DNA from: Patescibacteria group bacterium
GTDB lineage: Bacteria; Patescibacteriota; Minisyncoccia; Minisyncoccales; RBG-13-36-15
Assembly (NCBI GenBank): GCA_018609195.1
Contig: JAHCSE010000001.1
Coordinates: forward strand, 9,559 to 73,558
Direction of reading: 5' to 3'
DNA: 64,000 nucleotides
Numbering within the stretch: position 1 is the first letter of the stretch; the number at the start of each line of letters is the position of its first letter. Shown one piece after another: positions 29,225 through 61,730 of the stretch. A program made the position numbers and the translations under genes. Below the pieces are notes generated by a model. That model saw nothing but the letters and a program-made list of their open reading frames with translations, did not search any database and was not told the DNA's origin.

Positions 29225-29391
29225 AATTTTTTTATAGGTTGTAGTTTTAAGTTTTTAGATTTGATCGACCTTTTCCCTTTTTGTTCGTGGATTCCTTTGC
29301 CCCGTATCATCCGCCCAGGGCGGATTGGTGTGGGGTACTTATCCACAGGTTTATTTTAGCTTAATTTAAGCTAAAGATATAGTCAAGCCCC

Positions 29392-30594
29392 TTAAACTAT
29401 CTGAACAGAGGAATTTTTTACTGCCTCTTTAACTAATTTTTCAATATTTAGTTTTTTTTCTGTTTTTAAAATATCCTCTACTCTAGATTTCGTTTCAGGA
29501 TGTTTTGGTAAGAATCGAGAACAGCAATCTTGATGAGGCAAAATGGAAACATCAAAAGTGCCAATTTCTTTGGCTTTTTGTATTATCTCTTCTTTATCTT
29601 GGGAAATTAAAGGCCTGAAAACCGGGAGTTCAATTGTCTCTTCAATTACTTTTATATTCTCCAAAGTCTGGGAAGCAACTTGTCCAATACTTTCTCCGGT
29701 GAAAATTCCCAAAGCCTTTTCTCTTTTTGCTATCTCCTCCGCTATCTTTAACATAAATCTCCGATAGAGAATTACTCTTAATTTTGCTTGAGTTTTCATT
29801 AAAATCTCCTTTTGAATGTCAGCAAAAGGAATTAAATAGAGTTTTGATTTTCCCTGATAATCGCTTAAAATTCTGACTATTTTTATTGCCTTTTCAATAG
29901 AGGCTTTAGAGGCGAAAGGGTAGGCATGGAAATGTAAAAAAATAACTTTTACTCCTCTTTTCATTGCCAAAAAAGAAGCTACTGGTGAATCAATTCCACC
30001 TGAGAGCAGAGAAACTGCCTTTCCACTGGCACTAATTGGTAATCCTCCCTGGCCTCTGATTTTCTCCAAATATAAAAAAGCATAGTTTTCAACGATTTCA
30101 ATAAAGCAAGTTACATCTGGATTTTCCAAATCAACTTTAATTTTCGCTTGCGAGCCTAAGCCTTGGCGAAGGCGGGGTTTTTGAGTCTTTAATTTTTTTA
30201 AAACGTACGCCCCTACCCGCTCGTTGATCTGTGGGGAAGTTAACGAGAATTCTTTTTTTGATCTTTTGGTTGCAATTTTAAAAGTTTTAAATTTTTTATC
30301 CCTTAAAAGCTCAAGGGCCTTCTCTTGTATATTTTTTATTTTTTGAGGACAGCTAACAGCTAAAGCAGAATAGGCGATACCAAAAACCTTCTTGATATTT
30401 TCCTTAATCTCTTTTTCGTTTTCCTTTCCTTTTTTAGTTAATTTCACAATTATTCTCCCAGAAATTCTTTTAACAAATTCAAAAGAAGCGGATCCTAGGC
30501 TCCGCTTAATATTCTCCACTAATTTTTTTTCAAAAAATCTTCTATTCTTTCCTTTCAATCCAATCTCATGATAATGGCAGATAACAAAATCCAT
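29392..30594 (-). CDS. thiI: tRNA 4-thiouridine synthase ThiI
   Basis: SGGIDSPVA PP-loop and THUMP-like N-terminal half. Start set at MDFVICHYHEIGLKGKNR; the track ORF begins at an upstream TTG. Confidence 0.85.
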   Translation of the reverse strand: MDFVICHYHEIGLKGKNRRFFEKKLVENIKRSLGSASFEFVKRISGRIIVKLTKKGKENEKEIKENIKKVFGIAYSALAVSCPQKIKNIQEKALELLRDKKFKTFKIATKRSKKEFSLTSPQINERVGAYVLKKLKTQKPRLRQGLGSQAKIKVDLENPDVTCFIEIVENYAFLYLEKIRGQGGLPISASGKAVSLLSGGIDSPVASFLAMKRGVKVIFLHFHAYPFASKASIEKAIKIVRILSDYQGKSKLYLIPFADIQKEILMKTQAKLRVILYRRFMLKIAEEIAKREKALGIFTGESIGQVASQTLENIKVIEETIELPVFRPLISQDKEEIIQKAKEIGTFDVSILPHQDCCSRFLPKHPETKSRVEDILKTEKKLNIEKLVKEAVKNSSVQIV

Positions 30595-30657
30595 CTTGTT
30601 TAGGATAACAAAAAAAATCTCTTGAGCCAAGAGTTATTTCGTTCTTTTTAATTTAAA

Positions 30658-30679
30658 CTGCCCTTTTATAAAAGGGCAG
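30658..30679 (-). terminator. terminator after cobO
   Basis: CTGCCCTTTTATAAAAGGGCAG palindrome. Confidence 0.55.
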
Positions 30680-30731
30680 TCTTTGTTACATTTATTGGTA
30701 AGCTCTCGATGGTTTTACTTTTTCGTACCAT

Positions 30732-31253
30732 TTAGTATTCAACCCCTATTTTTGCTAAAACCCCTTTTTTAAAAGGGTGTTTTATTTCTTTACATTCAGT
30801 TGCCAAATCAGCAATCTTAATTAACTCTTTGGGGGCACCTCTCCCAGTAAGAATTAAATCTACTTCAGAAGGAGCTTTTTTTAGAATTTCCAAGACTTCT
30901 CTTAATTTAATGAGATTTAAAGAGATGGCAACATTTACTTCATCTAAAATTATCAAGTCAAATTCTCCAGAATGAATCGCATTTTTGGCAATTTTTAAGG
31001 TCTCTCGGGCTGCAAGTTCGTGAACTTCTCGGGGAAGCTTGTCCCCCATTATCCCAACAAAACCTTCTCCGCCTTTTATCAATTGAAATTTTGGTTCTAG
31101 GCTTTGGATGGTCTTTTCCTCGCCAGTTGGCCATTTTTTACTTTTAATGAACTGAATCATCAAAACTCGCTTTCCCTGGCCAACTGCCCGAATTCCCTGG
31201 CCAATGGCAGCTGTCGTTTTCCCTTTTCCATTCCCAGTAAAAACAAAAATCAT
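30732..31253 (-). CDS. cobO: ATP:cob(I)alamin adenosyltransferase (CobA/CobO/BtuR type)
   Basis: 173 aa; P-loop GNGKGKTTAA and ILDE motif. Overlaps nrdJ by 4 nt. Confidence 0.85.
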   Translation of the reverse strand: MIFVFTGNGKGKTTAAIGQGIRAVGQGKRVLMIQFIKSKKWPTGEEKTIQSLEPKFQLIKGGEGFVGIMGDKLPREVHELAARETLKIAKNAIHSGEFDLIILDEVNVAISLNLIKLREVLEILKKAPSEVDLILTGRGAPKELIKIADLATECKEIKHPFKKGVLAKIGVEY

Positions 31254-33553
31254 GTTTGAGGTATTTGAGCAGGTACACTCCCTTCTTCAGAGTCAAACTC
31301 ACACACACCTCCTACACAGGCTAACTCTTTGAAACCTGTGGTTTCATCTTCTTTCTCATAAACGATAATCTGGGCAAAGTCAACTTTTGGTAGTTTCTCT
31401 ACCAGTTCTTGATATTTTTCCTCATCGATTTCCTCGTAGGGAGCAAGTCGATAGACATGTTCTGCGCGTGGAATAAAAGAGAGCCCTCCTAAAATATTCC
31501 AGTTATCATAAAGCCAGTATGTAGCTTGAATCCACTCGTTCTCACCTACAGAAACGGTAACTGAGGGATTATGCTCGGTGAAATTTTCCTTCACCATCTT
31601 CCAGTGTCTAAGTTGATCGAGTGCTGTTAAATCATTTCGGAAAACAGCTCTCTCGGGAGATTTTACTGGAAACTCAAGCACAAAGGTCGTGGCCGAGTCC
31701 TCGAGCTGTCCAACTTCAGGATGATATGGAAATTTTTGTTCTTTCAACATTTGGAAAAGAGGGTCATTTGCCGATATACGAACTCGTCTAATATAAAAGG
31801 GAGAGTGTCGAGGGTGCATACCAGAGGCAGCATCCACAAGTTGAGATAATGTACCTGAAGGTTTGACACAGGTGATGCAGGTTGATTCCGAAATCCCAAA
31901 TTTCTTGGCATATTCACGATTGATTTCGAGCGATCTTTCCCGAAGTTTCCTGAGGGTTTCGGCTGATCTAGCTGCAGGACAATCCCACTGACCGGTTATC
32001 GAAATTCCTAAAAGCCTTTCCTCCTCGCAGTTTTGCTTCCATTCTTTTGAAAGATAAGAAAAATTGGTGAGAGTAGATTGATAGGTACCGAGCAAGGTGG
32101 CGATTTCGATCTTTTTCAGAAGAGATTCTTCAGTATCCTCGGGTCTGGCCACTACCTCGGTTAAATTGCAAAATTGTTTGGATCTTAATATAATTTCTCC
32201 GCATGGATTTGTGCCGGCAGTGGCCCAATATTTTTTAAATGTCTTCCAGCGCCTCTCTGGTAATTGATGTTTTAATCCTCCTCTATTAAAAATGCCTCTC
32301 TCGCCAGTTCCACTTTTAGCGAGCGCTAACCATTCTTCAAGAAACTGGATTGCGCTGGGTTTCTCATTATAAACCGCGGAGTTGTTGGCCATCGATCTCT
32401 GAGGATCAGTAACATAAAACTGGCCAGCTTTAGCTCCCCTCATATCTTCATCGTCGAGATCAGAAAGGGATATTAAAGCAGATCTTCGCACTCCACCCAT
32501 CACTACAATTTCCCCAATTTTGCAGATAATGTCATGAACATCAAGATTGGAGAGGCGTTTTCCTTGACGACTCAAAACTTTAGAGCGAACAAAATCTAAA
32601 AGTGATTTAAGTGCCCCAGGGCCTGAACTTCGACCTCCCATGGTCTTTAACTTTGATCCTGCTGGCCGAATCTTGGAGTAATCAAATATAATATCTTTAC
32701 CATTATACCAGGCTTTAAGTCCGATAGTTAACGCATCTCCCCATCCCTCTTTGCTGTCTAAAATTACATGGGCAGGTAATACTTGACCGGTCTGGCGTTT
32801 CACAATTGGTAGCTGCTGGACCGTTTGACTCTCCACTGAGAAGCCAACTCCTGTACCGCACATTAAAAGATATATAATTTCAGCAAAATCACGAAACTCG
32901 CTTGGTGCAATAAAAGAACAGTTATACACTGAGACATTGGAAGCCCTCGCTGCTTTCCCGGCAGCCCATAAAAGTCTCATCGATGGCATCACTTGATGAT
33001 TTAGGATTGCCTCTTTTATTTCCTGGTATTCGTTATCTCTTAACTTCTTGCCAAGATTCTCTCTCATGAAATCCACATAGCGATTGACCGTCTCAATCCA
33101 GGTTTCTCTCCTTCCCTCCTCTTCAATCCAGCGAGAATAAGTACGATAATAAATAAACTCAGCCAGCTCATTCCTGAAATATTTCCTACTCTTTCGCACA
33201 AGACCCTGCACCCGCTCGGGAATTAACTTCTTTTTTTCCCGAACTTCAGCTCTTGCTTGCCGATAGAGAATGTAAGCTTTTGCTGTCTTTGGAAAATCTC
33301 TCAGAATCAGAGTTTCTTCTACTAAGTCTTGAGTCCCCTCCACTTGAGGAATGTGAGGAGGAGGATAACGCTTCTCGAGTTTTTTCACTACCCTGTCTGA
33401 AATTCGAAGAGGATCTCGCGAAAGATTCCCTTCCCCAGCAGCTTGCATTGCTTTGGAGATTGCATTGGTAATTCGATTTTGGTCAAACGGAACAATATTG
33501 CCTTCTCTTTTTCGAATTTCTTTAATTTTATTTTTCAATTTTGGAAGCTGCAT
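31250..33553 (-). CDS. nrdJ: class II (adenosylcobalamin-dependent) ribonucleotide reductase with N-terminal ATP-cone
   Basis: 767 aa; ATP-cone (VRKREGNIVPFDQNRITNAI), TNPCGEI active-site loop, C-terminal Cys pair. Confidence 0.88.
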   Translation of the reverse strand: MQLPKLKNKIKEIRKREGNIVPFDQNRITNAISKAMQAAGEGNLSRDPLRISDRVVKKLEKRYPPPHIPQVEGTQDLVEETLILRDFPKTAKAYILYRQARAEVREKKKLIPERVQGLVRKSRKYFRNELAEFIYYRTYSRWIEEEGRRETWIETVNRYVDFMRENLGKKLRDNEYQEIKEAILNHQVMPSMRLLWAAGKAARASNVSVYNCSFIAPSEFRDFAEIIYLLMCGTGVGFSVESQTVQQLPIVKRQTGQVLPAHVILDSKEGWGDALTIGLKAWYNGKDIIFDYSKIRPAGSKLKTMGGRSSGPGALKSLLDFVRSKVLSRQGKRLSNLDVHDIICKIGEIVVMGGVRRSALISLSDLDDEDMRGAKAGQFYVTDPQRSMANNSAVYNEKPSAIQFLEEWLALAKSGTGERGIFNRGGLKHQLPERRWKTFKKYWATAGTNPCGEIILRSKQFCNLTEVVARPEDTEESLLKKIEIATLLGTYQSTLTNFSYLSKEWKQNCEEERLLGISITGQWDCPAARSAETLRKLRERSLEINREYAKKFGISESTCITCVKPSGTLSQLVDAASGMHPRHSPFYIRRVRISANDPLFQMLKEQKFPYHPEVGQLEDSATTFVLEFPVKSPERAVFRNDLTALDQLRHWKMVKENFTEHNPSVTVSVGENEWIQATYWLYDNWNILGGLSFIPRAEHVYRLAPYEEIDEEKYQELVEKLPKVDFAQIIVYEKEDETTGFKELACVGGVCEFDSEEGSVPAQIPQT

Positions 33554-35679: not shown

Positions 35680-35826
35680 AAAAATGTGTCCTCCTCCGTT
35701 AAAACTTTGGAGGACATGGATGGCATTCTGACTTTCACAGTTACGGCATAGTCCCGGATTTCCTGCCCGCATCGCTATACGAAGTATTGCAGGCGGGTCA
35801 CCGGAGTTCCCCATCCGTTTTCAAAG
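35680..35826 (-). promoter_or_regulatory. cobalamin riboswitch with terminator expression platform
   Basis: Sense strand: GGATGGGGAACTCCGGTGA...GGAAATCCGGGACTATGCCGTAACTGTGAAAGTCAGAATGCCATCC (B12-box-like AGTCAGAATGCC; P1 stem GGATGG/CCATCC). This is followed by the hairpin TGTCCTCC...GGAGGACA and T7. Confidence 0.78.
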
Positions 35827-35837
35827 TCCGTTAATAA

Positions 35838-35915: not shown

Positions 35916-36494
35916 CTAAATTTTACCTACTAATTTTAATCCGGGTTTTAAGGTTCTCTTTCCAGGTTCCCAACTGGCTGGGCAAACCAATCCTTTGTGT
36001 TCTCTGACAAATTTAGCTGCCTGCAATTTTCGTAAGATTTCTTTGACCGATCTGCCAATGCTATTGTTGTGCATTTCAAAAGCTTTAAGCTGACCATCAG
36101 GATCAATAATGAAAGTTCCTCGTAAAGAAAGACCTTCTTTTTCAATGTAGGTACCAAATTCTTGGCAAAGCTTTCCCGTTGGATCAGCTACCATCGGGAA
36201 TTTAATCTTTTTAATCGAAGGAGAATTATCATGCCAGGCCTTATGTACAAAAGCCGTATCGGTGCTCACACTTAAGATCTCTGCTCCCAATTTCTTAAAT
36301 TCAGAATAATATTTCGCAGCTTCTTCTAATTCTGTTGGGCAAACAAACGTAAAATCAGCAGGATAAAATAGCAATATAATCCATTTTCCCTTGTAATCAG
36401 AAAGTTTAATTTTTTTTATTTTTCCACTATGAAAAGCTTCCAACTCAACATCAGGTACTTTTTGATCAATTTTAACCATAGTTTTGTTAAACAA
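35916..36494 (-). CDS. 2-Cys peroxiredoxin (AhpC/Prx1 type)
   Basis: 192 aa; FTFVCPTEL peroxidatic Cys motif and a resolving Cys (GLVCPASW). Confidence 0.9.
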   Translation of the reverse strand: MFNKTMVKIDQKVPDVELEAFHSGKIKKIKLSDYKGKWIILLFYPADFTFVCPTELEEAAKYYSEFKKLGAEILSVSTDTAFVHKAWHDNSPSIKKIKFPMVADPTGKLCQEFGTYIEKEGLSLRGTFIIDPDGQLKAFEMHNNSIGRSVKEILRKLQAAKFVREHKGLVCPASWEPGKRTLKPGLKLVGKI

Positions 36495-36588
36495 TTTTAA
36501 TTTTTATTGCGACCTTTTACCCCGTTAGAAATTTGTTCTTTCTACACTTTCTCCATTGTATTTGGTATTTCTAACGGGGTTTACTTTA

Positions 36589-36957
36589 TTAAATAAATAT
36601 TATTTTCCCTAAAACTAAATTTTTATTCACTTGACCAAAATTTTTACTCGATTCTGACCAGGAAACAGTGCCTTCTACAAAATAAAAATTATTTTTTATT
36701 TCTTTCACTTTTTTCACAAATATTTCTTTTCGGTTTTTTGGGTTTTGAAAAACAATAAAATCAGAAACTTTGGGTTTCAACAAATTAGTGGCCAAATACC
36801 TTTTCTCCGGAACTAAATTTGGCCAAGCTGATTCCCCTTCAACTTTTACCAGAAAAATCAATCCCAAAATTTTAGTAAAGTTTATCAGTGATTTCTTTAT
36901 AGGATTTAAATCTCTCTGGGACATTTTTAACCTCATAGAAGATTTTCGCAATTTCAT
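36589..36957 (-). CDS. sodX: S26-family peptidase, Ni-SOD maturation protease SodX-like
   Basis: GESAWP (catalytic Ser) and FVKKVKEI (Lys) motifs. Immediately downstream of sodN. Start uncertain because the ORF overlaps the sodN 3' end. Confidence 0.6.
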   Translation of the reverse strand: MKLRKSSMRLKMSQRDLNPIKKSLINFTKILGLIFLVKVEGESAWPNLVPEKRYLATNLLKPKVSDFIVFQNPKNRKEIFVKKVKEIKNNFYFVEGTVSWSESSKNFGQVNKNLVLGKIIFI

Positions 36958-37345
36958 CTACTGCATCTAATAATTTCTTGGCAGCTGTTTCATTTACTTC
37001 CTGTTTATTTTGAGAGCAAAGTTTTACTGCCTTCCAGAAAAGTTCATGAAGATTAGGAAACTTCTCGAGATGTTCTTCTTTGAAGAAATCAGACCACAAA
37101 ATCTCAAGTTCCTTTTTGCAAAGCTCTGCATGGTCTTCCTTATTTTTGATTCTTCTTGCCACGCTATTGAAATACTGCAAAAGAGAGTCTTTGTCCATAA
37201 TATCTCTTGGTAATTCCAATTCCTTCAATTGTTGAATCATCCTGGCAACGGTTTTCGCAGCAATTTTGGCAGGAGTAGGTTCATAAATTGCACAAGGAAT
37301 ATCACAATGCGCTTGAGCTATAATTTTTGGAAAAAAATTCATCAT
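36872..37345 (-). CDS. sodN: nickel superoxide dismutase precursor
   Basis: MMNFFPKIIAQA pro-peptide followed by the HCDIPCAIYEP Ni-hook. Start trimmed from the track ORF, whose extension crosses an upstream hairpin. Confidence 0.82.
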   Translation of the reverse strand: MMNFFPKIIAQAHCDIPCAIYEPTPAKIAAKTVARMIQQLKELELPRDIMDKDSLLQYFNSVARRIKNKEDHAELCKKELEILWSDFFKEEHLEKFPNLHELFWKAVKLCSQNKQEVNETAAKKLLDAVDEIAKIFYEVKNVPERFKSYKEITDKLY

Positions 37346-37498
37346 AATCTTCGATCTATTTAAAGGAAAACTGACCTCGACCTTTCCCCCCACCACTTCT
37401 GCACTCGCTTTATGATACTTGTGCCAAAGGCACAAGTAGAAAAGTGGTGGGGGGTTTATCTAAGATTTTTATCATTTTGAATAAAAAAATCAAGTTTT

Positions 37499-38530
37499 TC
37501 AAAAAATCTCTGCGAAAAGTTTATTTGAAAAATAAATAACTTGCCAGAAATCTTTAGAAAATAAATCTTTTAAAGATGGTCTTTCTGGAGAAACGTGGCC
37601 GTACTTTTCAGATATTACTACCGTCTTTTTGCCAGAGTAAATTTCAGAAAGAAAAAGAGAATGAGGAAAAGGAATTAATTGATCCTTTTTTCCATGGAGA
37701 ATAAAGAGAGAGGCTTTAACTTCTGGAACCACGGTTTTTGGCGAGAGCGATTCGAGAATTTCATTGGTATAAGGTGGCAAGTCTCGAAAAAGTTTTTCTA
37801 ACTCTTCTCTCTGTTTGCTTTCCATAATTTTTTCAATAATTATTTTTCCTTCCAGAGTTTTTTCTTCTTCAAAAAATCTTTGAAGATTTTTTTCCACTAC
37901 CTCTTTAATTCTCAATGAAGGATCCCAAGAATTTACCTTTTCTTGATAAACAAAACTTTCAGAAAGCACCTCTTGAATAAGTTGCTTTGCATCAAAGTAT
38001 CCACCACTCCATAAAATGTATTTAACTTTCTCTTGAATCTCAGGATCTGCAGCTGCCAAGAAAGCAAGAGAGGAACCTACGGAAAGACCAAAAAAACCAA
38101 TTGTGCTAGAATCAATATAAGGTTTCTTTTCAAGGAATTGAAAGGCCTCTACAAGATTTTTTATTTCTTTTTTATCAATCAAGGAATCTTTTAAAGCTGA
38201 CGAGTCAACAGTGATAACCACTACTCCATTTTGTACCAATCCTTGAAAAAGTTTTTGTAAATTTTTCTCCTCAGCTCCTTGAGGATGAATACCAAGAGAA
38301 ATAACAACCCCCGGGTGCCTATTGTCATCAGCTGGACGGAAAATATAAAAGGTGGAGTCTTTATCTTTGGGGTAAATTTCTTGAATTACATCTTCTGAAA
38401 GTTCGGTTGCCTCTATTGGTAAAATAGAGAAGAGGAAGCTCAATGTTTTGAATGTCATTCCCAAGGGAGTAGCAACGAAAAGAAAGGTAATTACTGCCAA
38501 AAAAATAAATATTACAATAAAGAGCCTCAT
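37499..38530 (-). CDS. alpha/beta hydrolase (membrane-anchored)
   Basis: 343 aa; GLSVGSS nucleophile elbow; C-terminal GHV; N-terminal TM helix. Confidence 0.6.
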   Translation of the reverse strand: MRLFIVIFIFLAVITFLFVATPLGMTFKTLSFLFSILPIEATELSEDVIQEIYPKDKDSTFYIFRPADDNRHPGVVISLGIHPQGAEEKNLQKLFQGLVQNGVVVITVDSSALKDSLIDKKEIKNLVEAFQFLEKKPYIDSSTIGFFGLSVGSSLAFLAAADPEIQEKVKYILWSGGYFDAKQLIQEVLSESFVYQEKVNSWDPSLRIKEVVEKNLQRFFEEEKTLEGKIIIEKIMESKQREELEKLFRDLPPYTNEILESLSPKTVVPEVKASLFILHGKKDQLIPFPHSLFLSEIYSGKKTVVISEKYGHVSPERPSLKDLFSKDFWQVIYFSNKLFAEIF

Positions 38531-39499: not shown

Positions 39500-40279
39500 C
39501 TACTGAACGGTTAATTCTCCTTTCATGCCGTTTGCCCGGTGGCCAGGAACTGAGCAGAAAAAGGTATAAGTTCCGGAGGCTGAAGCAGTAAATTCAATCG
39601 TATCTGTCTTGCCAGAACCAATAGTTTTTGTTCCTACTCCTAATTCAGTAATTTTAAAATTGTGGATAATACTGCCATCGTTCCTGAAAGTTATTTTCAG
39701 TTGATCCCCAGCTGAAACAGTGATGGAAGCTGGGCTAAGACTAAATTCAGTACCACTGACGGTAATCTCTCTCACTATCGATGCTGGAGCAATACTCTTT
39801 GTAACCGTCATTGACTTTACCACAATCTTATCATCAACTTTCACTGGTACATCATCTCCTGGAAACTCATAGATGTCATCTCCATCATCAATATGGATCA
39901 TGGCAAAAAGGAAATTCTCTCCTTCTTGAAGCTCACTTACCACAACAGAAATGTTATTGTAGGTTCCAGATTCAACGAAATCAGAATTCCCAAGAACTTT
40001 CCCTGGTTTTCCATCTTCTGAAAGGTGAATCACAACATAGCCTGGGTCTTTAAAGCTTACCTCTTGGATAGTCACTTGATCTTCTGTAACCTGCTGATCC
40101 TGAACAGTAATCGCAGCCTGGGTTACTGGTGGTAGGAGTACTGTAGGTAGTGCTTCTGGTGGCTGATATCCTCCTTTCAATAGAAAATAGCCACCAATAA
40201 TAACCACCAAAATAATCACTATCACCCCTATCCACTTACACCCGCACATCTTCTCTGATTTACAAATTAGACATTTCAT
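39500..40279 (-). CDS. membrane-anchored type-1 copper (cupredoxin/plastocyanin-like) protein
   Basis: C-terminal domain with Cu ligands H (IHNF), C-x2-PGH-x4-M (FFCSVPGHRANGM). Cys-rich N-terminus plus a TM helix. Confidence 0.75.
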   Translation of the reverse strand: MKCLICKSEKMCGCKWIGVIVIILVVIIGGYFLLKGGYQPPEALPTVLLPPVTQAAITVQDQQVTEDQVTIQEVSFKDPGYVVIHLSEDGKPGKVLGNSDFVESGTYNNISVVVSELQEGENFLFAMIHIDDGDDIYEFPGDDVPVKVDDKIVVKSMTVTKSIAPASIVREITVSGTEFSLSPASITVSAGDQLKITFRNDGSIIHNFKITELGVGTKTIGSGKTDTIEFTASASGTYTFFCSVPGHRANGMKGELTVQ

Positions 40280-40377
40280 AATTTTTTATCTTTAATTTTT
40301 TATTTTAAAGCTCGACCTTTTACATCCTAATTATATTCTAACAAAAATTAAATAATTTCAAATATCCCTGGCCTTTT

Positions 40378-49562: not shown

Positions 49563-49721
49563 TTATGCACATCCACCGCAGCCCCCTTTTTCTTTATGAG
49601 TATGTCCGCACTTCGAACATTTTTCCTGACGCTCCGCTCCACAGCAGGTCCCAGGGCTTTCAGTAGACTCTGAACCACAGCCGGGACAAATATGTGTTTT
49701 TTCGGTTGTTTCTTCTGCCAT
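49563..49721 (-). CDS. 8-Cys micro-protein 1 (52 aa), unannotated
   Basis: Own translation: MAEETTEKTHICPGCGSESTESPGTCCGAERQEKCSKCGHTHKEKGGCGGCA. Paralog of 51189..51338. Confidence 0.6.
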   Translation of the reverse strand: MAEETTEKTHICPGCGSESTESPGTCCGAERQEKCSKCGHTHKEKGGCGGCA

Positions 49722-49778
49722 ATTTTATATTTTTTGAAAATTTAATTTTACAATTTTTTCGACCTTTTCTTGGTTGTA

Positions 49779-51188: not shown

Positions 51189-51338
51189 TTAAGCTGCGCA
51201 ACACTCTTTGGCGTACTTACCCGAACCACATCCACAAACCTTTTCTCTTGATGCACCACAACACGTTCCTCCTTCTTCACCCTCGGGAGGTGTACTGCCA
51301 CAGCTTTGGCATTTGTACTGGTCTTTTTCTTCAGCCAT
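51189..51338 (-). CDS. 8-Cys micro-protein 2 (49 aa), unannotated
   Basis: Own translation: MAEEKDQYKCQSCGSTPPEGEEGGTCCGASREKVCGCGSGKYAKECCAA. Confidence 0.6.
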   Translation of the reverse strand: MAEEKDQYKCQSCGSTPPEGEEGGTCCGASREKVCGCGSGKYAKECCAA

Positions 51339-51465
51339 AAATTGCTAAAAATTTAACGGTATTTTTGTTTTTTCGACCTTTCCCCGTAGAGAAATTTTGA
51401 CATCCGCCTTTGGCGGAAATAGTGTTTTGTTTAACAAAACACCAGTCAAAATTCTTCTACGGGGT

Positions 51466-51941: not shown

Positions 51942-52799
51942 CTACGGCAGAATTTGAAGTAGCCGTTCGCTTAACGTGATTACAATATTAAAGGCACCCA
52001 TAAGGATGAGGAAAAAGCCTCCTAATAACCTGATAGGTTTCATTTGCCTAACCAATGTTTGTGTCAAGGATTCTCTCGCAAATCCAGCTATAACTGAAAG
52101 TGATATCATGAGCAAAGCCATAACAGTACTTGCAAGTATAAAGACAGTTAAAGCAGAGGATAACCCGCCGCCACTCAAGGCAAAAAGAGAAAGTCCACCA
52201 ACTAAGGGAGCTACACAACCTATCCCAGCTAAAGTATATCCAAATCCAAACATAAAAAATTTACCAAACATTCCGCGGCCTCTTTTCGATATTTCAGTGC
52301 CAAGATGTTCCACTTTTCCTAAACTGACGAATACTTTATTGGTTACCAATGCCAACCCAAGTCCTATCAACAAAACACCAATGATTCGTCTAAACCATAG
52401 CAGTGCCGTTGTTCCTGGTTTAATAAAATTAATAAATGTTTCTCCCAAAAGTCCGATGACAATTCCGAAAAGAATCATAAACGCTAAAAGACCTAATGCA
52501 GCATAGAATCCATTACGAATCAGTTTTCCTCGAGAAAGTACTCGCCCTCCCCCACTCACCACCTCTGTTTGATAAACCAAATAAGATGGGAGGATCGGTA
52601 AAACACACGGATTAAAGAAAGCCGCTATCCCGACACCTAAGCCAGCGACAATAAGCGTAACCAAGGATATATCCGATGGTTTCATAAAACTTTTTGTAGC
52701 CGAAAAGAGGTAAAATCCGATAACTGCTATAACAATAAAAAACACTGCTAAGCCGATGTAAAGTAGAACAGGATGAGTTTTTGTCTGAGTATTATTCAT
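51942..52799 (-). CDS. CcdA/DsbD-like thiol-disulfide transporter paralog
   Basis: 285 aa; FFNPCVLPILPSYLVY and GIGCVAPLVGG motifs. Confidence 0.72.
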   Translation of the reverse strand: MNNTQTKTHPVLLYIGLAVFFIVIAVIGFYLFSATKSFMKPSDISLVTLIVAGLGVGIAAFFNPCVLPILPSYLVYQTEVVSGGGRVLSRGKLIRNGFYAALGLLAFMILFGIVIGLLGETFINFIKPGTTALLWFRRIIGVLLIGLGLALVTNKVFVSLGKVEHLGTEISKRGRGMFGKFFMFGFGYTLAGIGCVAPLVGGLSLFALSGGGLSSALTVFILASTVMALLMISLSVIAGFARESLTQTLVRQMKPIRLLGGFFLILMGAFNIVITLSERLLQILP

Positions 52800-52896
52800 A
52801 GGTACTATTTGAAGTTATAAGCTATTAGTTAATCATTTTAGAACTCGACCTTTGATTTCTTTTTCTTTAACTAATGCCCTCGTGGTTATAATAGGT

Positions 52897-54075: not shown

Positions 54076-54077
54076 AT

Positions 54078-55386: not shown

Positions 55387-56214
55387 CTACATTCCCCATA
55401 TAAAGAATATAGCAAACATCCACATACTTGTTAAGACTAATATTCCGCCTGCGACCTTTTTCATTGTTTCTGTTTTTCCAATCATTGTTTTGAAAAACGT
55501 GTGCTTTCCCTGCCCGATAAATACGGTAACTGCAATAAGAAATAATGCTTGAGCAAGACTAAAAATCAGAAAGCTTGAAATACTGACTAAAAATTCTCCA
55601 CCCACAAGAGGGAAGAATACCAATGGTAAAAAGATGGGCAAGAAACACATCAATCCTCCAGCCCCATATACAATGCCAAAGCCAAAAAGATTAACGCTTT
55701 GTGAACGCCCACGACTCATTTTATTAACTTTATCTCTGAAGGAAGAAAGAAAATTAATATTGATAGATTTGCCACGCAAAAAAGCAATGCCGATAAACAA
55801 AATGAGAATTGCAACGGCAAATTTCAATTGGCTAGCATAGGAAGCCAGAAATGTCCCGATAGTCGCAAAAAGTAAACCAAGGACAATAAAGAAGCTGAAT
55901 ACACCGAGTGAGGCAATAATGCCAAGCTTGATACTTCTTTTAATTGGCGAGTGTTTTTCTTCTCCCTCGTCCATTCCAAGATAAAAAGACATATAAGCCG
56001 GAAGCACTCCTAAGGAACAGGGTCCAAAATTCACAATAAGCCCGGCAATGAAAGCAAAGCCCAAAATACCAAGCGTGCTAAAGGCAGCAAGATTGCTTGT
56101 CTGGGGAATAATAATCCCATACAGAACTTTCCAGCCAAAGATACTGGCAACCACAAAAATAGTAAGTGCTGCCAATATCCAAATGCTATAAGTTACTATT
56201 TTTGACTTAATCAT
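55387..56214 (-). CDS. CcdA/DsbD-like thiol-disulfide transporter paralog
   Basis: NFGPCSLGVLPAYMSFY motif. Start set at MIKSKIV (4 nt after the stop of the upstream gene) rather than the track's 56286. Confidence 0.68.
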   Translation of the reverse strand: MIKSKIVTYSIWILAALTIFVVASIFGWKVLYGIIIPQTSNLAAFSTLGILGFAFIAGLIVNFGPCSLGVLPAYMSFYLGMDEGEEKHSPIKRSIKLGIIASLGVFSFFIVLGLLFATIGTFLASYASQLKFAVAILILFIGIAFLRGKSININFLSSFRDKVNKMSRGRSQSVNLFGFGIVYGAGGLMCFLPIFLPLVFFPLVGGEFLVSISSFLIFSLAQALFLIAVTVFIGQGKHTFFKTMIGKTETMKKVAGGILVLTSMWMFAIFFIWGM

Positions 56215-56218
56215 AAAA

Positions 56219-57076
56219 TTAAGGAAAAAGAATTTTTGTAAATGGAGTGATGAAAACAGAAGAAAGAATAAGGAAAATTCCGACAATAAGAAGTAGAACG
56301 CCGCTTACTCTTTTGATAGCAACGGTTGATTGGCGAAGACTTTGGAGTAAAGTTTCTTTGGAAAAAGCAATGAGCAGTGATACAACAATCATCAGAAGTG
56401 CCATTACTAATGAATAAACCACAAAAGCCAGAAACGCATCTGAGAAGCCACCTTGAGATAGTGCAAATACAATGAGCCCACCCATGATTGGGCCTCCACA
56501 ACCGATACCAAGTAGTGGATAGCCAAAACCATAGCCATAGAGTTTTCCAAATCCCGCTTGTTTTTCTTCCGGCAATGATTTCGGATGCCATAAATGCCCT
56601 AATCTCCCAAAAGGATTCCCTCTCCCTGTGGCGTGGCTAAAACCAAGATACAGAAGAAACACTCCTACAATGCCACGCAGCCATCTTACTGGTATGCTTG
56701 GGTTTTCTCCTGCAAGCCCTAATGATTTCCCAAAACCAGCTCCTAAAATACCAATGCCAATACCGAGTAAAAGATTAAAGGTGATAAGACCTAATGCTGC
56801 TGCTAATCCAGAGAGGAGTAGTTTCGTTGCTGACTTTTTACTTTCACCTTCTTTTGTTGTGTAGTATTGAGCAAAGTAGGCAGGAAGCAATGGAAAAGCA
56901 CAAGGGTTAAAGAAACTTGCCACTCCTGCAACTACCGCAACAAATAGTAACCCAAAAGCAGCACCTCCCTTCATTATGTTGATAACAAACCAGATAAATA
57001 ACCCATACCCGCCTGCTACCAAAACAAAAATAATAAAAAAAAGAAAAATGAGCTTGCTCCAATCTTTTAACGACAT
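56219..57076 (-). CDS. CcdA/DsbD-like thiol-disulfide transporter paralog
   Basis: 285 aa; FFNPCAFPLLPAYFAQY and GIGCGGPIMGG. Overlaps ArsR-2. Confidence 0.72.
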   Translation of the reverse strand: MSLKDWSKLIFLFFIIFVLVAGGYGLFIWFVINIMKGGAAFGLLFVAVVAGVASFFNPCAFPLLPAYFAQYYTTKEGESKKSATKLLLSGLAAALGLITFNLLLGIGIGILGAGFGKSLGLAGENPSIPVRWLRGIVGVFLLYLGFSHATGRGNPFGRLGHLWHPKSLPEEKQAGFGKLYGYGFGYPLLGIGCGGPIMGGLIVFALSQGGFSDAFLAFVVYSLVMALLMIVVSLLIAFSKETLLQSLRQSTVAIKRVSGVLLLIVGIFLILSSVFITPFTKILFP

Positions 57077-57369: not shown

Positions 57370-57376
57370 AGTATGA

Positions 57377-57404: not shown

Positions 57405-57457
57405 GTGTATTTTTCCACAAGAGTTCTCATTGTTTTGTTTTGTATAGAGATATAAAA

Positions 57458-57476
57458 AACCGCCTTCTCGACGATT
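57458..57476 (-). terminator. family terminator, copy e (variant)
   Basis: aaccgccttctcgacgatt. Downstream of 57515..57700. Confidence 0.5.
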
Positions 57477-57514
57477 GATTAAGATTTCAGCCTACCCTGT
57501 TGCTCCCTATTTCT

Positions 57515-57700
57515 TTAGCTCTCTGACTTCTCAAGGAAAGCAGGTTCTTTCACAGCGTGCTCGGTAATCTCAAGGTTACAGCTTTTGTGTTCCAAGCACC
57601 AAGCCTCGCATTTCTCTGCCCACTCTTTTTCTCTATAAGTAAAACCGCACTCTCTGCACTGGTAATACGTTTTATTGTTTTGAGTAATAACTTTTGGCAT
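57515..57700 (-). CDS. Cys-rich zinc-ribbon protein (61 aa)
   Basis: YYQCRECGFTYREKEWAEKCEAWCLEHKSCNLEI. Paralog of 52897..53064. Confidence 0.65.
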   Translation of the reverse strand: MPKVITQNNKTYYQCRECGFTYREKEWAEKCEAWCLEHKSCNLEITEHAVKEPAFLEKSES

Positions 57701-57729
57701 AAATCACTTATATAAAAAGCAAAAGTAAA

Positions 57730-58107: not shown

Positions 58108-58175
58108 AAATAATACTAGATTTTAAAGAATATGAACTTTATCTTCGATAAAGACCGTATAATTTTCGTTTCGCT

Positions 58176-58589: not shown

Positions 58590-58594
58590 GGTTG

Positions 58595-58810
58595 TTATTT
58601 TCGCTCTTGATCACGGTGGATGAGCGTCCCTACACCAAAGGCAATGGAAACAAGTAATAATGTTATTGCGTCATTGTAAAAATCTCCTTGAGACAATCCA
58701 AGAAAAGTGCCATACGTTCTCACAATCCAAGCGCCAAAGAGCGATAATATGCCTAAAATTCCAGAAATCATGGCAACGTGGTGTAAAATTGGTGACCATT
58801 TCATATTCAT
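58595..58810 (-). CDS. small two-TM membrane protein (71 aa)
   Basis: ORF between the SPFH and VKOR genes with two hydrophobic helices. Confidence 0.45.
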   Translation of the reverse strand: MNMKWSPILHHVAMISGILGILSLFGAWIVRTYGTFLGLSQGDFYNDAITLLLVSIAFGVGTLIHRDQERK

Positions 58811-58837
58811 AGAATGTATCTAATAAATTTACGTTTA

Positions 58838-58895
58838 GGCCTGCCTGCCCCGTAGGGAAGCGAAGCTTCTCCTTCGGGGCTTAATCTTACAGGCC
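58838..58895 (-). terminator. nested GC hairpin after the SPFH gene
   Basis: GGCCTG..CCCCG..GGAAGC-GAA-GCTTCTCC..CGGGG..CAGGCC. Contains the GCGAAGC mini-hairpin motif. Confidence 0.5.
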
Positions 58896-58917
58896 ATTTA
58901 TTGTTCAATAGGGTCTC

Positions 58918-59703
58918 CTATTTTTCATTTCCCTCGTTCTTGTTCTCTTCTGGTAATTTTTTGCCAAATCTTTCAAAGGCTCTAAGAATTTCCAAAGGCA
59001 CAGCAAAAATAATCGTATTTGATTTATCAGAGCTTATATCATTGATTGATTGAAGAGTTCTTAAATGAAGGGCTCCCTTAGCCTCAGATAGAGTCCGGGC
59101 AGCTTTTGCCAGATTACCGGAGGCAATTACTTCTCCTGCGGCCTTAATAATTATTGCTCTTTTTTCCCTTTCTGCTTCAGCTTGCTTTCCAATTACCCTC
59201 TTCATTCCTTCTGGTAAAGTTATATCTTTTAATTCCACATTGAGAACTTTAATTCCCCAAGGATCGGTAGCCTTATCTATAATGCTTCTTATGTTTTCTG
59301 AAACCCTGTCTCTTTGAGAAAGGAGGCCATCTAAATCTACTTGACCTACGGCATTTCGCATTGTTGTTTGGGCTAACTGAGAAATGGCAAAGAAAAAATC
59401 CTCTACTTCCAAAACTGCCTTATCAGCTTCTTGGACTTTATAATAGATAACAGCATTAACCCTAACTGAGATATTATCCTTGGTAATTGCCTCCTGATCT
59501 GGTACATCTACCGCCTTTACTCTTAAATCTATTTTTCGATAAAACTGAACAATAGGCAAAACTATTCTCCAGCCAGGTTCCATCAAACCGATATACTTAC
59601 CCAGCATAAACTTAACTCCCTTTTGATACTGATTAATCTGCTTAATGGAGGTTAAAATAATCAAGACAATTATTGCTAAAATTACCCAACCTATATTTGG
59701 CAT
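58918..59703 (-). CDS. SPFH/band-7 (stomatin/slipin-like) protein
   Basis: 261 aa; N-terminal TM helix, KDNISVRVNAVIYYKV, and an EAEREKRAII coiled region. Confidence 0.85.
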   Translation of the reverse strand: MPNIGWVILAIIVLIILTSIKQINQYQKGVKFMLGKYIGLMEPGWRIVLPIVQFYRKIDLRVKAVDVPDQEAITKDNISVRVNAVIYYKVQEADKAVLEVEDFFFAISQLAQTTMRNAVGQVDLDGLLSQRDRVSENIRSIIDKATDPWGIKVLNVELKDITLPEGMKRVIGKQAEAEREKRAIIIKAAGEVIASGNLAKAARTLSEAKGALHLRTLQSINDISSDKSNTIIFAVPLEILRAFERFGKKLPEENKNEGNEK

Positions 59704-59723
59704 ATTTTTTTGAAGTTAATTAA

Positions 59724-60359
59724 TTATTCGACCTTTAAGGAACCCAGCATTCCATTGGCGCGGTGACCAGGGATAGCACAATAATACTCAAAGGTACCTA
59801 GCTTATCGGGTATGAAAGAGACAGTTTTCGATCCAGTACCATAGTAACCACCAGATAGTGAGTAGTTAACTCCTAGTTCATCGATAGTAAAAGTATGGGT
59901 GCCAGAGATGGAAAAGTTAATCTTAAGTTCTTGTCCTTTTTGAACCGTTGCTGAATTTGGAATAAACGCAAAGTTGCGTGCCGTCATTGAAATCTCTTTA
60001 GTTGGAAGTGGCTCAGGAGTAGGTTCAGGTTCAGGGGTTGGCTCAGGCTCTGGAGTAGGTTCTTGCATAGGTTCAGGTTCAGACTCTGGTTCTGGGGTTG
60101 GTTCGGGTGTAATCATCTGTTCTTCTGTCAGTGCTGGAGCGATTGCCTCTTCTTCATCTGGGAGAGACACCTCCTCGGGTGGACTAGGAATTTGTTCTCC
60201 TGGGGCGACTTTTTCTGGTGCTAGAGGCCCGGTTGGAGTTGGAGTTGGGGCTTGATAACCTCCTTTTAAAATAAAATATCCACCCACAATGACTGCAAAC
60301 GCCACCGCTGCAATAATAATACCCCACGTTACTTTATCCATATATTCCCTACCTTTCAA
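59724..60359 (-). CDS. membrane-anchored cupredoxin with Pro/Glu/Thr-rich linker
   Basis: C-terminal domain with GTHTF...YYCAIPGHRANGM type-1 Cu ligands. The true start may be MDKVTW (ATG ending at 60341). Confidence 0.75.
   Translation of the reverse strand: MKGREYMDKVTWGIIIAAVAFAVIVGGYFILKGGYQAPTPTPTGPLAPEKVAPGEQIPSPPEEVSLPDEEEAIAPALTEEQMITPEPTPEPESEPEPMQEPTPEPEPTPEPEPTPEPLPTKEISMTARNFAFIPNSATVQKGQELKINFSISGTHTFTIDELGVNYSLSGGYYGTGSKTVSFIPDKLGTFEYYCAIPGHRANGMLGSLKVE
60007..60108 (-). repeat. coding tandem repeat (PEPTPEPEP linker)
   Basis: ggttcaggt/ggctcaggc-type 6- to 9-nt periodicity encoding (T/E)PEP repeats. Confidence 0.7.
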
Positions 60360-60891
60360 TAAATTCTTTTATTTTATCTTCATCAAAACCATCTAAAATT
60401 TCTCTTTTGTTAAGCTTGGTTAAGATAATTTTCCCATCATAATTATTGGGAGCTAAATAAACATTGTCTGGGTATTGTTTTACTAAAGCTGTGATCTTTT
60501 CTATTAAACCTAATTTACACTTAAACTTATCACAGTTGTATTGAATGATAACTCCTGGTTTGCCTCTGCCATCGGCATGCTCTAACATGTGTTTTTGGAT
60601 GACTTCTGGTATAGGTTGCGAAAGAATGTGAGCTGGGGGTATTGCTTCTGAATGATTAAGGAGTGTCGTTGGAGGTAAATCAGGACTGCTGGTTAAAAAC
60701 CATCCTAAACCAAAAATTCCTCCTCCTATCACCAAGACAATTAAGCTTAAATTTAGTGTCTTTTTAAATCGCAGTCTCCGTCTTCCCCCCTCTTGTTCTT
60801 TTTGTCTAAGTTTTCTTTTGAGAAGTCGACGCTCTTTTTTTGTCAGTTGTTGATCCTCAACGAGAACCTTGTTTTTCTCTAATTCCTCCAT
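60349..60891 (-). CDS. membrane-anchored DUF3105-like protein
   Basis: 180 aa; basic N-terminus plus a TM helix; HMLEHADGRGKPGVIIQYNCDKFKC core. Family assignment is tentative. Confidence 0.4.
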   Translation of the reverse strand: MEELEKNKVLVEDQQLTKKERRLLKRKLRQKEQEGGRRRLRFKKTLNLSLIVLVIGGGIFGLGWFLTSSPDLPPTTLLNHSEAIPPAHILSQPIPEVIQKHMLEHADGRGKPGVIIQYNCDKFKCKLGLIEKITALVKQYPDNVYLAPNNYDGKIILTKLNKREILDGFDEDKIKEFIER

Positions 60892-60917
60892 TTTCCTTTA
60901 AGTAAAACCGGATCCTT

Positions 60918-61613
60918 TTATTTCAGATCAGCCAATGCCTGATCTACTGCGGCCTTGAAGGTTGAGTAAGGAACTGCTCCAGGAATGGATCGCCCATTTA
61001 CAAAACTTCCCGGAGTCCCTCTTACTCCTGTCTTTATCCCCTCTTGATAATCAGCGGCTACCTTATCTTTGTATTTTCTGGAAGAAAAACAACTATTAAA
61101 CTGATCTATATTAAGCCCGAGATTTCCTGCTAATTCTTGATAAAGTGCTTTTCCCAATCTGGATTGATTTTCAAATGCGCCATCTACAAACTGCCAAAAT
61201 CCATCATTTCCCGTTTGTTCCCAGACGCACTCGGATGCTTCAGCTGCAGGGGTTGCCTGAGGATGAATTTGGTCTAAAGGAAAGTGCTTGTACACCCAAC
61301 GGACTTGACCGGAATACTCTGCCAAAATCTGCTTCAGAGTGGGATGAAGTCTATCGCAAAATGGACACTCAAGATCAGAATATTCAACAATAGTTACGGG
61401 GGCCTCAAAATCTCCTCGGATATGATCTTTCTCGGAAATAGTAAGCGTTCCTCCTGGACTTCCTTTTTGAGACTCTGTTTGAGAAATATCAGCCTGCGAT
61501 TTTTGAGTTAATCCAGTGGATTGTTGAGGGCTTTTTGTATAAATCAAAGCTCCAACAATCAGTAAAGCACCTACAATTATTGAGACTGGTAAATATAATT
61601 TTTCTCCTCTCAT
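60918..61613 (-). CDS. DsbA-family thiol:disulfide oxidoreductase
   Basis: YSDLECPFCDRLHP CxxC, GTPGSFVNG cis-Pro loop, N-terminal TM helix. Confidence 0.82.
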   Translation of the reverse strand: MRGEKLYLPVSIIVGALLIVGALIYTKSPQQSTGLTQKSQADISQTESQKGSPGGTLTISEKDHIRGDFEAPVTIVEYSDLECPFCDRLHPTLKQILAEYSGQVRWVYKHFPLDQIHPQATPAAEASECVWEQTGNDGFWQFVDGAFENQSRLGKALYQELAGNLGLNIDQFNSCFSSRKYKDKVAADYQEGIKTGVRGTPGSFVNGRSIPGAVPYSTFKAAVDQALADLK

Positions 61614-61730
61614 AGATTTATTTGAATAAAGTATAATCCGACCTTTTCCCCCACCACTTTTTGATTCGCTTCGCGAATGAGTCCATGAATATATCCAAAA
61701 GTGGTGGGGGATTTTTATCTCATATCAACT

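Follow-up and report, generated by a model that had tools for sequence, protein, structure and literature searches.

Patescibacteria, the candidate phyla radiation (CPR), are not growable alone, have tiny genomes and carry few recognisable regulators; to our knowledge, almost nothing is known about gene regulation in these organisms. The question is raised in a concrete form by a 64,000-nucleotide stretch of the genome of a Patescibacteria group bacterium (assembly GCA_018609195.1, contig JAHCSE010000001.1, positions 9,559 to 73,558), here termed the window and labelled W in comparisons with loci of relatives, which are labelled L003-L097. An earlier reading, made from the sequence alone and without database searches (the sequence-only reading), had noticed one short motif upstream of eight genes encoding redox, metal-binding or Cys-rich proteins, often beside a long hairpin. 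Does this motif define a regulon, do the hairpins belong to it, and is it read on DNA or on RNA? The motif, AAAGGTCGR, is a lineage-specific and strictly strand-specific cis-element, and the thiol, metal and oxygen-defence genes behind it probably form an undescribed regulon that it defines.

A nine-base box upstream of redox and metal genes

The window is bacterial, with a GC content of ~37% and, at 5-21 kb, the str and S10 operons. It matches a portion of a 71-kb JGI metagenome contig with full identity; the distinct sequences nearest to it come from metagenome-assembled genomes labelled as Patescibacteria or as Parcubacteria-type phyla. Canonical sigma-70 promoters are present, for instance a perfect TTGACA-16-TATAAT 5' of an ArsR gene, as are canonical stem-plus-T-run terminators (at 29047, 35617 and 63569).

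AAAGGTCGR is a 9-base box, strictly conserved and strand-specific. The 8-mer AAAGGTCG was observed 11 times in the window, where 2.0 copies are expected, and this count was matched in none of 100 dinucleotide-preserving shuffles of the window. Ten of the 11 copies lie on the minus strand, the sense strand of nearly all genes there, and eight of these ten are intergenic, although intergenic DNA makes up only ~10% of the window. The single antisense copy, at 31682, lies within a ribonucleotide reductase (RNR) gene. All eight sites given by the sequence-only reading are real and lie on the minus, sense strand at the positions it listed, whilst two more sense copies (59729-59736 and 55452-55459) had been missed. 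The ten sense copies are:

29265..29273, minus strand: AAAGGTCGA box, 41 nt 5' of the ATG of the DUF5679 Zn-ribbon gene (29072-29224)
36509..36517, minus strand: AAAGGTCGC box, 30 nt 5' of the ATG of the peroxiredoxin gene (35916-36479)
37377..37385, minus strand: AAAGGTCGA box, 32 nt 5' of the ATG of sodN (36872-37345), which is followed by the sodX peptidase (S26) gene
40312..40320, minus strand: AAAGGTCGA box, 33 nt 5' of the ATG of the DUF7282-cupredoxin gene (39500-40279); the only near-palindromic copy (AAAGGTCGAGCTTT)
49759..49767, minus strand: AAAGGTCGA box, 38 nt 5' of the ATG of the gene for the 52-aa 8-Cys peptide 1 (49563-49721)
51373..51381, minus strand: AAAGGTCGA box, 35 nt 5' of the ATG of the gene for the 49-aa 8-Cys peptide 2 (51189-51338)
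52845..52853, minus strand: AAAGGTCGA box, 46 nt 5' of the ATG of the gene for a 285-aa CcdA/DsbD-like membrane protein (51942-52799)
61638..61646, minus strand: AAAGGTCGG box, 25 nt 5' of the ATG of the DsbA gene (60918-61613)
59728..59736, minus strand: AAAGGTCGA box in the last codons (LKVE*) of the cupredoxin gene 59724-60359, 25 nt 5' of the ATG of an SPFH/Band-7 gene (58918-59703); probably functional
55451..55459, minus strand: AAAGGTCGC copy within the DsbD_TM-like coding sequence 55387-56286, 100 nt 5' of a CMAS gene; probably a chance copy

The eight intergenic boxes stand 25-46 nt 5' of an ATG, so that the upstream placement first described holds, over a narrower range than the 25-70 nt given for it. 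The names first proposed for the downstream genes were confirmed with Pfam, among them the DUF5679 Zn ribbon, AhpC/Prx, Sod_Ni, DUF7282 plus cupredoxin, and DsbA; the remaining genes encode two ~50-aa Cys-rich peptides and the 285-aa membrane protein, which is similar to DsbD/CcdA by tblastn. The reported absence of the motif from translation and sugar-metabolism genes was likewise borne out: the translation block of the window (1-29 kb) has no copy, and neither has its pentose-phosphate block (40.4-49.7 kb). A strand-skewed architectural oligomer (Chi, the FtsK-orienting KOPS or architecture-imparting AIMS sequences, or an uptake sequence) was considered and rejected, since 8/10 sense copies are intergenic, none falls in the 29 kb of translation genes, and the box tracks orthologs.

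Conservation of the box in related genomes

Loci compared with the window comprised 80 around DUF3179 homologs (~25 of them from CPR, the others from other phyla and used as controls), together with 10 sodN loci and four around 8-Cys homologs; a search for more homologs of the 8-Cys peptide gave only three, the protein being short. Clear chance copies were set aside, namely one in a 23S rRNA, one in a U-tract terminator and several in coding sequences. The exact 8-mer was found in the sense orientation, ahead of genes that are orthologous or similar, in at least 13 further contigs of Patescibacteria with 33-55% GC (L004, L005, L006, L008, L010, L013, L014, L016, L017, L026, L084, L085, L090 and L097). 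It precedes DoxX genes in L016, L026 and L090, a ferritin gene in L084, a rubrerythrin-like gene in L085, a cupredoxin gene in L004 and a CcdA-like gene in L005, as well as genes for small Cys/His-rich peptides directly 3' of DUF3179 in L005, L008, L010, L013, L014, L016, L017 and L097; about 12 such peptide genes are among the box-bearing genes of relatives. Under a crude filter, CPR intergenic DNA held 24 copies of the exact 8-mer as against nine or fewer for every one-mismatch variant, and intergenic copies were oriented 33 sense to 0 antisense. In the non-CPR control loci the 8-mer occurred at background.

The box tracks the downstream gene regardless of the gene upstream. At sodN it is kept in L003, L004 and L085, with one-off variants in L084 and L086; more distant sodN genes carry ordinary TTGACA/TATAAT promoters in its place, and it is for this reason that we regard the box as lineage-specific. 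The box of 8-Cys peptide 1 lies 20 nt past the DUF3179 stop codon, and a box occupies the same post-DUF3179 position in L008, L010, L013, L016, L017 and L097. Box and leader of 8-Cys peptide 2 are kept in L004 and L097, and the DsbA box in L004, L094 and L097; at the DUF7282-cupredoxin ortholog of L004 and L094 the box is placed differently relative to the conserved flanks.

Taken by function, the box-led genes fall into three groups: DsbA, CcdA/DsbD and DoxX belong to extracytoplasmic thiol-disulfide exchange, the cupredoxins, ferritin and small Cys/His-rich peptides to the handling of metals, and Ni-SOD, peroxiredoxin and the rubrerythrin-like protein to defence against oxygen radicals. The proposal that the motif marks a coherent redox, metal and thiol gene set holds in the window and in diverged relatives alike. 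When the window was searched with Rfam 15, only a tRNA-Pro and an AdoCbl-II riboswitch were returned, and nothing at the boxes or hairpins, either at gathering thresholds or at E<=1; five related loci gave no Rfam match. In the literature the 9-mer appeared only as primer sequence in unrelated papers, and papers on Patescibacteria regulons concerned only LexA/SOS. The box, probably a regulon-defining cis box, has neither an Rfam family nor a published description.

Two further observations were made in the loci of relatives. At L084 7880-8290, a box copy lies in the last codons of a Fur-family-like gene, just 5' of a 109-aa protein that matches only the C-terminal (glycyl-radical) end of the anaerobic ribonucleotide reductase NrdD; next come the ferritin gene, with its box, and then sodN, with the variant AAATGTCGA. 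At L004 11040-11130 the 8-Cys-1 gene is missing after DUF3179, and a short duplication of the DUF3179 3' end (...HPDTELYK*) is followed by AAAGGCTTT, which is possibly the scar of a lost box and gene.

Hairpins beside the box

Four boxes of the window have long palindromes at their 5' side (no strand assigned):

36519..36580: MITE-like palindrome, arms ACCCCGTTAGAAAT / ATTTCTAACGGGGT, between the sodX stop codon and the peroxiredoxin (Prx) box
37386..37454: MITE-like palindrome, arms CCCCCCACCACTT.. / ..AAGTGGTGGGGGG, flush with the 5' edge of the sodN box
51382..51464: MITE-like branched palindrome, arms CCCCGTAGA.. / ..TCTACGGGG, between the ArsR stop codon and the 8-Cys-2 box
61647..61711: MITE-like palindrome, arms TCCCCCACCACTTTT / AAAAGTGGTGGGGGA, flush with the 5' edge of the DsbA box

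Here MITE denotes a miniature inverted-repeat transposable element. All four are strong hairpins (z = -5.2 to -10.2), and no other GC-closed inverted repeat of the window is as long. The sequence-only reading had counted five long hairpins directly before the motif; of these, the one at 29285-29350 is weak (z = -0.95) and stands clear of the motif. The relatives contradict the view that hairpin and motif are parts of one element, as the hairpin is an indel between strains and other genomes carry none, different ones, or one on the opposite side of the box.

At sodN, L003 is 99.9% identical to the window from ~55 nt 5' of the sodN box through sodX, and precisely lacks the 69-nt sodN palindrome whilst keeping the motif (empty site CTTAAATAAAGGTCGA; filled site in the window CTTAGATAAA[CCCCCC...GGGGGG]AAAGGTCGA). 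AAA stands on both sides of the filled site, a 3-nt A-run duplication that, with one filled/empty pair only, may be coincidence. L003 also lacks the whole block of hairpin, box and Prx. At 8-Cys peptide 2 (8Cys2), L004 has an unrelated AT-rich stretch with TATAAT boxes where the window has the hairpin, and keeps the box-to-ATG leader, whilst L097 has a ~47-nt hairpin of another family directly 3' of the box, before the conserved TTAAAT leader, with the gene intact. A third kind of hairpin is flush with the 5' edge of the box at 8-Cys peptide 1 (8Cys1) of L097, and at DsbA both L004 and L097 lack the window-type hairpin and have another one 12 nt 3' of the box. Hairpins are thus flush with the 5' edge at four window sites, in L084 and at L097 8Cys1, and lie 0-13 nt from the 3' edge at L097 8Cys2, in L014 and L005, and at DsbA of L004 and L097, those of L005 and L004 beginning 5-13 nt past the box; the 9-mer is intact each time, and most box sites have no hairpin at all.

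The hairpins also have conserved terminal inverted repeats, variable interiors and multiple copies, the marks by which MITE-like or repetitive extragenic palindromic (REP)-like sequences are recognised. The arms CCCCGTTAGA/TCTAACGGGG recur in six genomes (twice in W; L005, L008, L011, L084 and L085), where they enclose loops of 4-260 nt and in most cases are not near a box; the arms CCCCCACCACTTTT occur twice in W, and AGGCTCAG..CTGAGCT in both L004 and L097. Elsewhere, related hairpins have AAAG behind them but not the remaining bases of the box. Because of the strain-level indel, the different or missing hairpins in relatives and the arms found away from the motif, the hairpins look like MITE/REP-like palindromic insertions that are separable from the box and not part of the element. 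They probably settle next to it through an AAAG-type target preference and the scarcity of other neutral space, and four of them may abut boxes in the window because, in a compact genome, much of the intergenic AAAGG available as a target belongs to box sites. No transposase or REP-associated tyrosine transposase (RAYT) for the hairpins is encoded within the window.

The same comparisons bear on the possibility that hairpin and motif form one structured RNA or a terminator tail, with the motif being the 3' flank of preceding terminators. All four long GC-closed hairpins of the window are directly followed by the motif, and the AAAG after related hairpins elsewhere would fit as well. Most boxes are nevertheless free of hairpins, L003 keeps the motif without one, the motif tracks the downstream gene, and neither a U-tract nor an Rfam match was found; with the L003, L004 and L097 comparisons refuting it, this explanation is hardly credible. 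As intrinsic terminators the hairpins themselves were rejected, their stems being followed by AAAGG on the sense strand and not by a U-tract, as the sequence-only reading had correctly noted.

Two side observations concern these palindromes and their surroundings. Between L003 and window positions 36589-37460 the identity jumps from ~90% to 99.9%, over a tract that takes in the box, sodN with its predicted promoter, and sodX, as far as the stop codon of sodX, a pattern of identity that suggests a recent recombinational exchange of the whole expression unit. At L011 5015-5045 there is a perfect palindrome, ACCCCGTTAGAAAT-ggcc-ATTTCTAACGGGGT, with the same arms as the window hairpin 36519-36580 and a loop of only 4 nt. 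TTGAC and TTGACA stand at its flanks, and it could be the MITE in minimal form or else a palindrome to which a protein binds.

Anatomy of the box and its distance to the start codon

When sites were aligned on the box, extra information was present only at position 9 (A 20, G 6 of 29). A position profile, a TAnnnT histogram and a flexible 4/5-mer window scan over 29-30 sites revealed no -10 or -35 partner at a fixed distance, and the box is a stand-alone asymmetric 9-mer with sharp edges. Dimeric operators of the Fur/PerR, ArsR/SmtB, MerR and CsoR types were rejected, the profile being that of a single asymmetric 9-mer with no dyad or half-site repeat.

The distance from box to ATG ranges over the sites from 16 to 135 nt, with a median near 34 nt, and all distances above 52 nt are explained by stable self-folding insertions in the leader. 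After these are discounted (only stable hairpins, with a leader minimum free energy of -12 kcal/mol or lower), the box lies 16-52 nt 5' of the start codon. The shortest distances are 16, 21 and 25 nt at the three DoxX sites and 16 nt at the CcdA-like gene of L005, where the box (L005 8494) lies within the loop of a 7-bp stem. A role as Shine-Dalgarno sequence or ribosome-binding site was rejected, with the box 16-135 nt from the ATG and not 5-10 nt, and Shine-Dalgarno sequences nearly missing genome-wide; in the window, an SD-like match of at least 4 nt precedes only ~12 of 89 crude gene calls. Since the whole genome is without such sequences, their lack at box-led genes is uninformative as a sign of leaderless mRNAs.

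Downstream of the box, TTAAA-type boxes occur within 30 nt at 45% of sites as against 18% in controls. The sequence-only reading had placed a TAAAnn box 15-18 nt downstream in most cases; the enrichment is real, whilst the register varies by at least 6 nt and no fixed partner emerges. One explanation builds on this signal and takes the box as a -35 element or class II activator site, with TTAAAT/TAAAnn 13-18 nt downstream as the -10 element of leaderless or short-leader mRNAs. All eight window sites do have a TTAAA-like box 13-18 nt past the 9-mer and an ATG 25-46 nt past it, and at 8Cys2 the arrangement motif-17-TTAAAT is common to W and L004. However, the drifting TTAAA register is not significant as a fixed partner, and the -10 score at 15-19 nt past the box reaches only p=0.09. 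In sodN orthologs the TTTAAA box lies 7-21 nt from the motif and 6-14 nt from the ATG, which is to say that it holds its distance to the ATG and not to the box. In L097 8Cys2 the ~47-nt hairpin separates the box from the TTAAAT leader, and at the three DoxX sites and the L005 CcdA site the ATG is only 16-25 nt past the box, where a two-box sigma-70 promoter needs a start codon at least ~26-28 nt past its -35 box. We consider a -35 role very improbable.

Predicted promoters upstream of the box

Between box and ATG, the motif-bearing intergenic regions contain no strong canonical promoters. In the 65 nt 5' of the box (or of hairpin plus box), the sigma-70 promoter score averages 8.2, compared with 7.6 for genuine promoter regions (p=0.04) and 7.5 for tight operon junctions (p=0.002), and the gap from the predicted -10 to the box is 0-35 nt, without phase. 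Two candidates are conserved:

61728..61756, minus strand: candidate sigma-70 promoter TTGCCA-17-(TG)TAAAGT, 5' of the DsbA hairpin and box
37474..37502, minus strand: candidate sigma-70 promoter TTGAAA-17-CAAAAT, 5' of the sodN hairpin and box

The DsbA candidate is kept as TTGTCA-17-TAAAGT/TAACGT in L004 and L097, where the region is non-coding, and the sodN candidate is identical in L003, where it ends 17 nt before the box. At L084 2133, a predicted TGnTATAAT promoter lies 5' of the hairpin itself. The box would appear to lie in the transcribed leader because the DNA directly 5' of it is enriched in sigma-70-like promoters, which are conserved in the cases of DsbA and sodN.

How the box may be read

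We tentatively favour, from sequence comparison, the view that the box is an RNA-level operator in the leader, recognised by an RNA-binding protein or a small RNA, a view that we hold to be the likeliest single one and still quite possibly wrong. Transcription would start from sigma-70-type promoters predicted 0-35 nt 5' of the box, or 5' of the inserted hairpin, which would put the box within the first tens of nucleotides of the transcript. There it would be read as a single-stranded leader operator by the RNA-binding regulator or small RNA, which would co-ordinately control translation, stability or both for the box-led mRNAs in a genome nearly without Shine-Dalgarno sequences. Palindromes inserted 5' or 3' of the box would only add stems to the 5' untranslated region (UTR), leaving the single-stranded 9-mer ~16-52 effective nt before the AUG. 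Among the three mechanisms put forward by the sequence-only reading, it is the 5'-leader RNA motif that fits best; the alternative-sigma promoter of -35/-10 type is contradicted, and a plain operator is disfavoured by the 33:0 orientation.

Two other explanations account for parts of the same evidence. In the first, an alternative sigma factor would use the 9-mer as a single-box promoter, a -10-type element without a -35 and with transcription starting a few nt downstream. Strict orientation and sharp edges agree with such an element, as does the fact that nothing is needed upstream, where hairpins sit flush at the 5' edge; insertions downstream would fall in the 5' UTR, the 16-nt minimum to the ATG still fits a start site, the stretches from box to ATG have no strong canonical promoters, and stress regulons are typically sigma-controlled. 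Against this, the sigma-70-like promoters that are enriched upstream, and conserved at DsbA and sodN, would be needless for a self-sufficient promoter, the box is not AT-rich as a melting element would be, and in L014 and L097 GC-rich hairpins begin 0-6 nt past the box, just where the DNA would have to melt and transcription to begin. Nor was any sigma-like open reading frame (ORF) found in ~600 kb of CPR fragments, in a crude scan with a loose region 2/4 signature. Analysed in this way, a single-box promoter seems rather unlikely.

In the second, a repressor, for example a redox- or metal-sensing monomer, would bind the box as a DNA operator in the initially transcribed region and block RNA polymerase there. 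The position of the box 0-35 nt 3' of predicted -10 boxes, the coherent gene set, and the ArsR- and Fur-family regulators encoded in the neighbourhoods are all compatible with this. The site is non-palindromic, however, and 33:0 is not an orientation bias expected of simple steric repression; at four genes of the window, 64-84-bp palindromes between predicted promoter and box would move the operator to about +75 to +95, where it could act only as a roadblock. Identity at 8/8 positions, with none degenerate, is atypical for a site bound by protein on double-stranded DNA, and ArsR homologs are present with or without the box. We give a DNA operator a low probability, similar to that of the single-box promoter. 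ArsR was also rejected as the specific regulator, its homologs preceding DUF3179 in nearly all CPR loci, box or not.

Several points weigh against the leader operator that we favour. All promoters and start sites are predictions in AT-rich DNA, in which -10-like hexamers are common; the excess of the upstream score over genuine promoter regions is modest (p=0.04), and the conserved ...LYK* codons of DUF3179 contribute some of the TATAAA signal upstream. The loci compared contain no complement UCGACCUUU in 23S, 5S or tRNAs (no locus includes a 16S gene), no intergenic antisense copy that could serve as a small RNA seed, and no RNA-binding regulator consistently linked to the box. For oxidative and metal stress regulons, control at the DNA level is the usual case, it is unusual for a linear RNA operator of 9 nt to be this strictly conserved, and the single-box promoter model also survives most tests.

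A bolder version of the leader operator may be sketched, which we consider improbable as a whole. It would be a Parcubacteria-wide post-transcriptional regulon in which a redox- or metal-responsive RNA-binding factor, perhaps a small Zn-ribbon or Cys-rich member that regulates itself, or a small RNA with a UCGACCUUU seed, gates ribosome loading ~30 nt 5' of the AUG, and in which several unrelated MITE families home to both edges of the box, making the leaders landing pads.

Neighbouring peptides, repeats and riboswitch

A family of Cys/His-rich peptides of 32-64 aa is encoded in the window (49563-49721 and 51189-51338) and in L008 (~11060-11240), L010, L013, L014, L015, L016 and L017, and matches no Pfam or NCBIfam family. 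It has two flavours, CxxCGS...CCG...C and repeated CMACxCPCDxHKxHTH, and its members, which nearly always adjoin ArsR-thioredoxin-DUF3179-redoxin-DsbD clusters, look by their sequences like metallothionein-type metal binders. Also in the window, at 57515-57700 on the minus strand, a 61-aa CxxC...C...C zinc-finger protein has weak similarity to DUF7128 and to the rubrerythrin C-terminus; it is 56-70% identical in seven other loci (one on a contig labelled Methanosarcinales), always near DUF3179/DsbD genes.

Tandem (T)ATTCGTA units ending in ATTCGTAGG stand 4-6 nt before the ATG of three genes (15680-15700, 21506-21545 and 25329-25365, minus strand), namely an rpsL-like 136-aa gene with four units, a 357-aa adenylate-kinase-domain gene with three to four and, within the ribosomal protein block, a 197-aa gene. 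A single 9-mer of this repeat type is not enriched by itself; it is the tandem arrangement before start codons that is striking. Similar GCGAATG/ATTCGTAG repeats fill the leaders of thioredoxin and Cys/His peptide genes in L010 (9650-9690 and 11060-11140). In the ribosomal protein block of the window, a 75-nt gap at 6905-6977 is dense with direct and inverted repeats of AATGGCTAAATGG type and gave a spurious sub-threshold match to mir-5736.

The AdoCbl-II (cobalamin) riboswitch lies at 35713-35827 on the minus strand, has a promoter, TTGACA-18-TGnTATTAT, at 35867-35838, and stands 5' of an operon whose last genes are a class II-type RNR and a CobA/BtuR-like gene. Its internal hairpin is swapped between W and L003.

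By linking Ni-SOD, peroxiredoxin, DsbA/CcdA/DoxX, cupredoxins, ferritin-like proteins and many unannotated Cys/His-rich peptides, the box would offer a first regulon-scale handle on oxygen, thiol and metal stress. It would give functional context to DUF5679, to the neighbours of DUF3179 and to the 8-Cys and CMACxCPC peptides, and serve as a simple sequence probe for metatranscriptomic tests. The hairpins, for their part, indicate that conspicuous intergenic hairpins in such genomes can be mobile palindromes, not terminators or riboswitch-like leaders.

Comparison with known systems

Leader boxes that define post-transcriptional regulons include the GGA sites of CsrA/RsmA and the target sites of RyhB or OxyS. 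Like these, the box would be a short, single-stranded, strand-specific 5'-leader sequence at a variable distance from the start codon in the ribosome-loading region; it may be presented beside stems or in stem loops and links functionally related mRNAs. It differs in being a single copy of 8-9 invariant nt, which is far stricter, and in usually lying ~30 nt before the AUG without overlapping a ribosome-binding site.

Amongst promoters, those with a single box are represented by the cin-box of streptococcal ComX (sigma-X), TACGAATA, and the late promoter of phage T4, TATAAATA. Each shares with the box one strict 8-9-mer, no conserved -35, orientation specificity and a regulon defined by it, whereas the box is not AT-rich and has predicted sigma-70-type promoters upstream. 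The thiol-oxidative stress regulons of the extracytoplasmic function (ECF) sigma factors sigma-R/SigH, with promoters of the GGAAT-N18-GTT type, overlap in gene content (thioredoxin-fold, thiol-disulfide and oxidative-defence genes), but their promoters have two boxes at a fixed spacing and here there is one box with no fixed partner.

The layout of stop codon, imperfect palindrome, short conserved core, ~30 nt and next ORF superficially resembles integron attC sites, and one block (hairpin, box and Prx) does differ between strains. Unlike in attC, the box is outside the palindrome, none of the hairpins has an inverse core TCGACCTTT on its 5' side, palindromes are missing from most boxes, and the indel unit is the hairpin by itself. 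An integron cassette reading was rejected, since the high-identity tract of W and L003 starts ~55 nt 5' of the box and the box is therefore not a recombination junction.

The hairpins are closest to MITEs and to REP sequences and bacterial interspersed mosaic elements (BIMEs). They share with them palindromes of 60-85 nt with conserved terminal arms, variable interiors and several copies per genome, presence or absence between close strains, and location right after stop codons; a 3-nt AAA duplication is possible at one filled/empty site only. Their preference for the edges of one regulatory box is unusual for such elements.

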